This document shows positions 56,298 through 59,045 of a stretch of 64,000 nt of DNA, one piece after another. The DNA is from Escherichia coli (GTDB lineage: Bacteria; Pseudomonadota; Gammaproteobacteria; Enterobacterales; Enterobacteriaceae): NCBI RefSeq assembly GCF_003334255.1, contig NZ_QOWU01000003.1; one strand, given 5' to 3'. A program made the position numbers and the translations under genes. Under the pieces are notes generated by a model. It searched no databases. It saw only the letters and a program-made list of their open reading frames with translations, and was not told the DNA's origin. Positions within the stretch are counted from its first letter, which is position 1. Each line of letters opens with the position of its first letter.

Positions 56298-58433
56298 TTA
56301 CTCGCCCTGTTCAGCAGCCGGAGCTTCCGGTGCTGCAGCAGGTTGAGACTGCTCAGTCGCTTCTTTAATGCTCAGACGGATACGGCCCTGGCGATCAACT
56401 TCCAGAACTTTCACCGGTACTTCCTGACCCATCTGCAGGTAATCGGTCACTTTCTCAACGCGTTTGTCAGCGATTTGAGAGATGTGGACCAGACCTTCTT
56501 TACCGCCGCCGATGGCAACAAATGCGCCAAAGTCAACGATACGGGTCACTTTACCAGTGTAGACGCGGCCCACTTCGATTTCTGCAGTGATCTCTTCGAT
56601 ACGACGAATAGCATGTTTCGCTTTCTCGCCGTCGGTCGCTGCAATCTTCACAGTACCGTCATCTTCGATTTCGATGGTGGTGCCAGTTTCTTCGGTCAGA
56701 GCACGGATTACAGAACCGCCTTTACCGATAACATCTTTGATCTTGTCCGGGTTGATCTTGATGGTATGGATACGCGGTGCGAACTCAGAGATATCGCCAC
56801 GCGGCGCGTTGATCGCCTGTTCCATTACGCCCAGGATATGCAGACGCGCACCTTTAGCCTGGTTCAGCGCAACCTGCATGATCTCTTTGGTGATACCTTC
56901 AATTTTGATATCCATCTGCAGTGCAGAGATACCGTCGCGGGAACCTGCAACTTTGAAGTCCATATCGCCCAGGTGATCTTCGTCGCCCAAAATGTCAGAC
57001 AGTACAACGTAGTTGTCGCCTTCTTTCACCAGACCCATTGCGATACCCGCAACGGCAGCTTTGATCGGCACACCTGCGTCCATCAGCGCCAGAGACGCGC
57101 CGCACACGGAAGCCATAGAAGAGGAACCGTTGGATTCAGTGATTTCAGACACAACACGTACGGTGTACGGGAATTTGTCCATATCCGGCATGACTGCCAG
57201 CACGCCGCGCTTCGCCAGACGACCGTGACCAATTTCACGACGCTTCGGAGAACCGACCATGCCGGTTTCGCCTACGGAGTACGGAGGGAAGTTGTAGTGG
57301 AACAGGAAGGTATCGGTACGTTCGCCCATCAGTTCATCAAGAACCTGCGCGTCACGAGCAGTACCCAGCGTTGCGGTAACCAGCGCCTGCGTTTCACCAC
57401 GGGTGAACAGCGCAGAACCGTGAGTACGCGGCAGCACGCCAGTACGCACATCCAGACCACGGATCATATCTTTTTCACGACCGTCGATACGCGGTTCGCC
57501 TGCCAGTACGCGGCTACGAACAACGTTTTTCTCGATCGCGTGCAGAATTTCACCCAGTTCGTTTTCGTCCAGGGTTTCGTCTTCAGCAAGCAGCGTCGCG
57601 ATGGTTTCAGATTTGATGACATCAACCTGCGCATAACGCTCTTGTTTGTCGGTGATGCGGTAAGCATCGCTCAGGCGAGCTTCAGCCAGTGCAGCAACGC
57701 GCGCGTTTAGCGCTTCGTTTACCGGCTCCGGCTGCCAGTCCCAACGCGGTTTACCGGCTTCTTTCACCAGTTCATTGATGTTCTGAATAACAACCTGCTG
57801 TTGTTCATGACCGAACACTACTGCGCCCAGCATCTGGTCTTCGCTCAGCAGTTGAGCTTCAGATTCAACCATCAGTACAGCGGCTTCAGTACCGGCAACA
57901 ACCAGATCCAGTTTGCTCTCTTTCAGCTCGTCCTGAGTCGGGTTCAGTACGTACTGGTCATTGATGTAACCTACGCGGGCAGCACCAATCGGGCCATTGA
58001 ACGGAATACCAGACAGAGACAGCGCTGCGGAAGCACCAATCATCGCGACGATATCCGGGTTAACTTGCGGGTTAACAGAAACCACGGTGGCGATAACCTG
58101 AACTTCGTTGACGAAGCCTTCCGGGAACAGCGGGCGAATCGGGCGGTCAATCAGACGCGCGATCAGGGTTTCGCCTTCGCTTGGGCGGCCTTCACGACGG
58201 AAGAAGCTACCCGGGATACGACCAGCAGCGTAGGTACGCTCCTGATAGTTAACGGTCAGTGGGAAGAAGTCCTGACCTGGTTTGGCTTTTTTCTGGCCAA
58301 CAACGGTAACGAATACCGCGGTGTCATCCATGCTAACCATAACAGCGGCAGTAGCCTGACGAGCCATCATGCCGGTTTCCAGAGTCACGGTGTGTTGGCC
58401 GTACTGGAATTTACGAACGATCGGATTAAGCAA
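56298..58433 (-). CDS. pnp: polynucleotide phosphorylase PNPase, 711 aa, TTG start
   Basis: Translation from the TTG at 58431-58433 reads (M)[30 protein letters not shown]... with two RNase PH domains, KH and S1 domains; the track ORF extends 29 codons upstream to an alternative start. Confidence 0.93.
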
Positions 58434-58634
58434 TGTAATATCCTTTCTCTTTCTTAGACAGTACCTTACGGCACTGGTGTTAATACCCGATCTTCTGCGC
58501 ATCCTCGCGACTAATGACAACCCTAACCCAGCTCTATGTGGGTAAAGCCTCTCATTAGCCGCGCGAACCTCTGCAACGGAAGATCATTCATAGCAACAAT
58601 ACATTAGTTTCCAGTGAATTGCTGCCGTCAGCTT

Positions 58635-58664
58635 GAAAAAAGGGGCCACTCAGGCCCCCTTTTC
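58635..58664 (-). terminator. rpsO terminator hairpin in the rpsO-pnp intercistronic region
   Basis: Minus strand reads gaaaagggggcctgagtggcccctttttt: GC-rich stem followed by a T-run, immediately 3' of the rpsO stop; the rest of the leader (58434-58634) is the known RNase III-processed pnp 5' UTR. Confidence 0.65.
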
Positions 58665-58679
58665 TGAAACTCGCAAGAA

Positions 58680-59045
<366 letters not shown>

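Follow-up and report, generated by a model that had tools for sequence, protein, structure and literature searches.

We analyzed a 64,000-nucleotide (nt) stretch of Escherichia coli DNA (contig NZ_QOWU01000003.1 of RefSeq assembly GCF_003334255.1), hereafter the window, and focused on pnp, the gene of polynucleotide phosphorylase (PNPase), on the leader that separates it from rpsO, and on the antisense RNA gene sraG. The features of this region are listed in Table 1. Window positions 55765-60065 were compared with positions 3308500-3312800 of E. coli K-12 MG1655 (NC_000913.3); the two stretches are 100% identical, with 0 mismatches in 4301 nt. The window shares with K-12 the sequence, the gene coordinates, the TTG start of pnp, the rpsO terminator T1, the leader hairpin R and SraG, and nothing detectable differs between them over the 4301 nt. 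A 901-nt query is present in all 5426 complete E. coli genomes (5426/5426), at an identity of at least 99% in 5407 of them. The locus is thus almost certainly the canonical E. coli rpsO-pnp-sraG locus, with a UUG start, an RNase III-cut leader and the antisense RNA SraG. The TTG start, the structured leader, RNase III cleavage and the SraG overlap are all already known; the K-12 literature on pnp autoregulation (Portier, Regnier, Jarrige, Carzaniga, Park) is used here as cited in Fontaine et al. 2016 (PMC5029454). The biochemistry of RNase III, PNPase, CsrA and SraG is taken from literature on the identical sequence; sequence identity, conservation, structures and family matches were computed in this work.

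Table 1. Features of the rpsO-pnp-sraG region, in window positions
Feature	Positions	Strand	Basis
pnp (b3164), polynucleotide phosphorylase, 711 amino acids plus stop	56298-58433	minus	translation of the open reading frame; RefSeq K-12 mapping
sraG (b4449), 216 nt	58448-58663	plus	RefSeq K-12 mapping
rpsO (b3165), ribosomal protein S15, 89 amino acids	58680-58949	minus	open reading frame list; RefSeq mapping
truB	59098-60042	minus	RefSeq K-12 mapping
pnp TTG initiation codon	58433-58431	minus	RefSeq start; conservation in 43/43 loci; published toeprint
pnp Shine-Dalgarno AAGGA, 7 nt before TTG	58441-58445	minus	sequence reading; alignment
rpsO-pnp intergenic spacer, 246 nt	58434-58679	minus	full leader of read-through (P1) transcripts
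Bidirectional intrinsic terminator (T1 of rpsO on minus, SraG terminator on plus)	58636-58664	both	fold; alignment; scan
Hairpin R, RNase III substrate, 97 nt; apical loop 58538-58531	58489-58585	minus	fold; covariation
P2 transcription start, approximate, deduced	58589-58595	minus	literature spacing to RNase III cuts
Probable SraG -10 hexamer TAATAT	58436-58441	plus	sequence; hexamer assignment putative
In-frame ATG, 23 codons upstream of pnp TTG	58500-58502	minus	frame scan; not a start
In-frame TTG, 29 codons upstream of pnp TTG	58518-58520	minus	frame scan; not a start

On the minus strand, AAAGGATATTACA is followed by TTG and by CTT AAT CCG ATC GTT CGT AAA TTC CAG, which together encode (M)LNPIVRKFQ. 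An earlier note, made from the sequence of the window, had assigned the N-terminus of PNPase to this TTG; translation gives the same result, and RefSeq places the K-12 start at the same codon. The longest mechanical open reading frame (56298-58520) is 740 amino acids in length, that is 711 plus 29, and begins at the TTG at 58520. The same note had taken the nearest upstream in-frame start to add 29 residues. That TTG is in fact the farthest one; the frame scan identified a nearer ATG, which adds 23 residues. Upstream of both, the frame is closed by a TGA at 58586-58584. The in-frame starts downstream of the pnp TTG (GTG at +15 and ATG at +21) would remove conserved N-terminal residues. The TTG combines a Shine-Dalgarno (SD) sequence at functional spacing with conservation among orthologues, and no better start is present in the frame.

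Conservation was assessed in 80 loci encoding PNPase relatives, one genome per species, 43 of which are from Enterobacterales and related insect-associated bacteria (L002-L040, L042-L044 and L050). At the position of residue 1, all 43 of these loci have a TTG that follows an AAGGA-type SD; the conservation of the PNPase peptide begins at codon 2. In 27 of the 43, the upstream frame meets a stop before any ATG, GTG or TTG (after 5 codons in Citrobacter werkmanii, for instance, and after a single one in Serratia silvae), therefore the TTG is the sole possible start in those species. In an alignment of 27 species, the AAGGA block is nearly invariant, and A235, G237 and A244 are invariant.

The protein itself points to the same N-terminus. 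Against the 711-residue form, the polyribonucleotide nucleotidyltransferase family profiles TIGR03591 and NF008805 score 1093 bits (cut-off 525) and 1061 bits (cut-off 471); position 1 of the former aligns to residue 10 and position 3 of the latter to residue 8, so the N-terminus fits the family without a long unaligned extension. The 711-residue protein is identical to PDB chain 7ogk_A, an identity that reflects the construct of the depositors, not the native N-terminus. On the identical sequence, a toeprint dependent on the 30S subunit and tRNAfMet lies 15 nt from the UUG (PMC5029454).

Other proteobacterial pnp genes have different starts. In Alteromonadales-type and other gammaproteobacteria, the start is shifted downstream by one codon to a GTG, so that the protein begins with (M)NPI... 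or (M)TPI...; such loci are L041, L045-L049, L051-L053, L058, L059, L062, L066 and L070, with the codon at about positions 1498-1503. Betaproteobacterial pnp genes mostly start with ATG, and a few with GTG. Because many gammaproteobacterial pnp genes outside Enterobacterales begin with GTG, weak pnp start codons are widespread and not a peculiarity of E. coli. The order-wide invariance of TTG, with GTG in neighbouring gammaproteobacteria, is a mildly new point as judged from this comparison. The locus is also a useful positive control for annotation: a mechanical caller yields a PNPase of 740 residues, and comparative data by themselves suffice to recover the true TTG start of the 711-residue protein.

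The spacer between the rpsO stop codon (TAA, 58682-58680) and the pnp TTG runs from 58679 to 58434 and is 246 nt in length; the previously given length of 247 nt counts the last base of the stop codon (58680). The spacers of E. albertii and Citrobacter likewise measure 246 nt. Longer rpsO-pnp spacers were found in L010 (353 nt), L026 (346 nt), L038 (335 nt) and L043 (531 nt), and spacers of about 300-309 nt in the Erwinia/Pantoea group (L015-L021); across the longer species, the excess over the Enterobacteriaceae norm of about 246 nt is 60-290 nt. [quoted passage not shown]

The full leader begins with the rpsO terminator. On the minus strand, positions 58664-58636 pair into a hairpin, GAAAAGGGGGCC-UGAGU-GGCCCCUUUUUU, with a 12-bp stem and a 5-nt loop, and its U-tract forms the 3' arm (-19.2 kcal/mol). 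On the plus strand, the mirror hairpin is followed by CUUUUC (-14.1 kcal/mol), and the terminator scan flagged a plus-strand terminator at 58642-58658, whose tail is T-rich. Among the 27 species, the GGGGCC/GGCCCC stem does not vary. A G+C-rich stem is thus placed between an A-tract and a T-tract, so that a hairpin and a U-run are formed on either strand, as in a bidirectional intrinsic terminator; SraG and rpsO were likewise reported to end at the same hairpin, which was therefore described as bidirectional (PMC5029454). One further Rfam match in this segment, MH_s15 at 58638-58665 (15 bits, E = 0.39), was dismissed, as it is merely the terminator hairpin. Concerning the earlier placement of the terminator at the head of the leader (58635-58664), the coordinates hold to within 1 nt; the generality does not, because only read-through transcripts carry the terminator.

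The reason is the second promoter, P2, which the earlier note left out. P2 is located downstream of T1 and yields a monocistronic pnp mRNA (PMC5029454), therefore many pnp transcripts have no terminator in their leader. Counted from the P2 start, RNase III cuts at 39 and 77 nt downstream (PMC5029454). By fitting the 38-nt spacing between the cuts and a 2-nt 3' overhang to the predicted pairs, the cuts would fall after 58553 and after 58515, and P2 would start at about 58589-58595. Candidate -10 elements of P2 on the minus strand are TAATGT (58606-58601) and TATTGT (58601-58596). The block TAATGTATTGT is nearly invariant in Enterobacteriaceae and probably holds the P2 -10 element. A second predicted hairpin (58592-58626, minus strand; CAGCAAUUCACUGGAAACUAAUGUAUUGUUGCUAUG) lies between T1 and hairpin R and overlaps this block.

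The fold of the minus-strand leader, which had been proposed as a check, shows that it is strongly structured: over 256 nt of leader, the folding energy is -97 kcal/mol (z = -5.1), a value that none of 200 shuffled sequences matched. The predicted elements are the terminator hairpin, the second hairpin at about 58626-58592, the long hairpin R and a small hairpin at 58476-58459. Hairpin R alone (58585-58489) folds at -46.1 kcal/mol, with a z-score of -5.8. As expected of the RNase III-dependent autoregulatory leader of pnp, this long and near-perfect hairpin is located downstream of T1 and upstream of the SD.

The spacer was aligned across the 27 species, all Enterobacterales, with a mean column identity of 57%. 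Hardly any variation occurs in the arms of hairpin R, formed by the blocks TTCGCGCGGCTAATGAGAG and TTGTCATTAGTCGCGAGGATG; its apex and base are variable. Both the terminator and hairpin R appear in the RNAalifold consensus, which includes 12 compensatory pairs; columns 155 and 254, for example, hold G-C in 15 species and A-U in 11. For pair counting, the RNAalifold structure was extended by the basal helix. In this extended structure 96.0% of the cells are paired and changes on both sides occur at 18 pairs, and none of 500 shuffles reached any of the five observed measures. When the 3' partners were slid by 1-3 columns, pairing fell to 41-53% (slid controls at most 52.5%); the structure was derived from the same sequences and is therefore favoured over its slid versions, and the pair-type counts are less sensitive to this. 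The compensatory changes in the alignment indicate that hairpin R is maintained by selection. Two RNase III cuts were reported on the identical sequence (PMC5029454); together with the exceptional covarying hairpin, they bear out the earlier description of the leader as the target of RNase III autoregulation.

On the opposite strand, the Rfam model of SraG (RF00082) matches 58492-58663 over model positions 1-177, with a score of 164.3 bits (gathering score 50) and E = 1.4e-31. The match is antisense, lies between pnp (which ends at 58433) and rpsO (which starts at 58680), and ends at the terminator. As expected from the earlier note, SraG is thus antisense to the pnp leader, and its extent, which that note did not delimit, is settled at 58448-58663, as annotated in RefSeq. 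In strains N3433 and MG1655, whose sequence is identical, SraG was detected by Northern blots and circular reverse transcription PCR (cRT-PCR); by cRT-PCR, the primary transcript is 216 nt in length and begins 42 nt upstream of the older 5' end (PMC5029454). The Rfam model corresponds to the older 174-nt annotation, which starts from 58490; different from it, the mapped transcript begins 42 nt upstream, at 58448. The plus-strand base at 58448 is T, in agreement with the SraG start given in a figure legend of that study (PMC5029454).

[quoted passage not shown] In the window, TAATAT occupies positions -12 to -7 relative to the SraG start T58448 and complements the spacer between the pnp SD and the TTG; it is probably the SraG -10 hexamer. 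The SraG model matches 18 of the 20 related loci tested; the exceptions, L040 (Gilliamella) and L043 (Orbaceae bacterium), are the most distant of the set and are insect-associated. At the position of the E. coli SraG -10 element, TAnnnT is kept in only 19 of the 43 loci. Because of this low retention, many of the Rfam SraG matches may reflect conservation of the pnp leader and the terminator, not a transcribed small RNA (sRNA). By sequence comparison, the SraG promoter appears to be patchily conserved, which is mildly new. Like SraG, the sRNAs RliD of Listeria monocytogenes and ref41 of Enterococcus faecalis lie between rpsO and pnpA or opposite pnpA; their sequences are not homologous to that of SraG, and no study has addressed their effect on pnp (PMC5029454).

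The mechanism, whose biochemical steps are taken from the literature on the identical sequence (PMC5029454), is almost certainly as follows. Translation of pnp starts at the UUG, guided by the AAGGA SD 7 nt upstream. Transcripts from the rpsO promoter P1 either end at T1 or continue through the 246-nt spacer into pnp, and P2 is the second source of mRNA. Leaders of both types contain hairpin R, of which RNase III cuts both arms. PNPase then degrades the short upstream strand that is left paired to the new 5' end of the processed mRNA, and the message becomes open to decay by RNase E and to translational repression by CsrA, which closes the loop of PNPase autoregulation. One CsrA site is reported to overlap the pnp SD (PMC5029454). 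SraG adds a further layer, by pairing with the leader, blocking 30S binding and creating new RNase III cuts.

RNase III-cleaved leaders are well established, including the leader of rnc, the gene of RNase III itself (reviewed by Regnier and Grunberg-Manago 1990). The rnc and pnp leaders share a long hairpin that is cut by RNase III, with destabilization of the downstream message. Different from rnc, pnp requires that PNPase also degrade the strand paired to the new 5' end, and CsrA and an antisense RNA act as further layers.

Nothing in the data contradicts this picture of the locus, which has two limits. The P2 start and the exact cut positions were deduced from published spacings, not taken from the primary papers. 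In addition, a simple sigma-70 consensus scan flagged neither the P2 nor the SraG promoter; its sole match is the promoter of the rpsO P1 region, at 59086-59058. We treat the unflagged P2 and SraG promoters as a matter of scan insensitivity, not as evidence of absence. The blank scan of the spacer could also be read in favor of a quite different explanation, in which neither the leader structure nor the TTG has any regulatory meaning, both having arisen by chance in an AT-rich spacer. This explanation is hard to reconcile with fold z-scores of -5.1 and -5.8 that no shuffle in 200 equalled, with covariation better than all 500 shuffles and every slid control, with a TTG kept in 43 of 43 loci, and with three decades of experimental literature on the pnp leader. 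On these grounds it was rejected, and we give it practically no credence. It is also very hard to believe that PNPase carries 23 or 29 extra residues at its N-terminus. An open frame does extend 50 codons upstream of the pnp TTG, both the ATG at 58502 and the TTG at 58520 lie in it, and GAGG immediately precedes the ATG; however, GAGG abuts this ATG with zero spacing, an SD is lacking at the upstream TTG, and both codons are base-paired in the predicted hairpin R, the ATG in its 3' arm. The upstream TTG moreover falls within the apical fragment that RNase III would excise; if the cut positions given above are right, it cannot serve the processed mRNA. Besides the 27 of 43 related loci in which a stop codon precedes any upstream start, most related species have an in-frame stop between the position of the ATG and the pnp TTG. 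What is conserved upstream of the TTG is RNA structure, with compensatory changes, and not protein; the family profiles begin at residues 8-10 of the 711-residue form, and the published toeprint sits at the UUG (PMC5029454). The extended forms were therefore rejected, and the 711-residue PNPase that starts at the TTG is retained.

The remaining alternative concerns the strand on which selection acts, namely that the intergenic region is conserved mainly for SraG and that the hairpin on the pnp-sense strand is a by-product. The SraG model does match 18 of 20 related loci, and SraG forms a mirror hairpin that is cut by RNase III in vitro (PMC5029454). Because the leader and SraG are exactly complementary, the two strands cannot be separated by Watson-Crick covariation, but they can be by G-U pairs. 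Hairpin R in the 27-species alignment has 129 G-U cells, which pair on the pnp-sense strand only, versus 9 A-C cells, which would be G-U on SraG. The sense hairpin is also more stable than the antisense one by 12.7 kcal/mol (-46.1 versus -33.4 kcal/mol). Conservation driven by SraG is further opposed by the -10 hexamer, which is found as TAnnnT in fewer than half of the loci, while the hairpin core and the TTG are invariant. We consider conservation mainly for SraG improbable. The G-U excess and the more stable sense fold lead to the conclusion that the hairpin structure is maintained primarily for the pnp mRNA; the G-U bias, as a sign of selection on the sense strand, is a mildly new comparative point.

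Several further observations were made in the window. The ATG at 58502-58500, which had previously been missed, sits in the 3' arm of hairpin R, within the conserved motif GCGAGGAUGCG. The GGA motif at this ATG may be the upstream CsrA site that Park et al. 2015 reportedly described. At 58893-59007 on the minus strand, overlapping the start of rpsO, lies the ribosomal S15 leader (Rfam RF00114, 117.6 bits), the known pseudoknot region of S15 translational autoregulation. A match to naRNA4 (RF02564, 68.1 bits; gathering score 59.5), a repetitive extragenic palindromic (REP)-type element, is located at 60520-60590 on the minus strand, just upstream of rbfA, and the RNase P RNA gene rnpB (RF00010, 318.6 bits) at 15175-15551, also on the minus strand. 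The mechanical open reading frame of rbfA (60042-60461, minus strand) has a TTG start and encodes 139 residues; the RefSeq start is an ATG 6 codons downstream, which gives 133 residues (60042-60443). The over-extension of rbfA to a TTG is the same artefact as the 740-residue open reading frame of pnp.

The pnp gene is among the best-studied cases of layered post-transcriptional control, in which RNase III, PNPase, RNase E, CsrA, S1 and an antisense sRNA take part, and the present results leave the established picture of its regulation unchanged. The 129 G-U versus 9 A-C cells, the SraG -10 hexamer kept in 19 of 43 loci, and the UUG kept in 43 of 43 loci with GTG outside the order raise one tentative suggestion, to which we give somewhat less than even weight: the order-wide conservation recorded as SraG may result mostly from selection that acts on the leader in pnp sense, with its weak UUG, not on the antisense RNA. 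If this is true, PNPase autoregulation would include a weak start codon as an obligatory element, and SraG would be an addition restricted to certain lineages.

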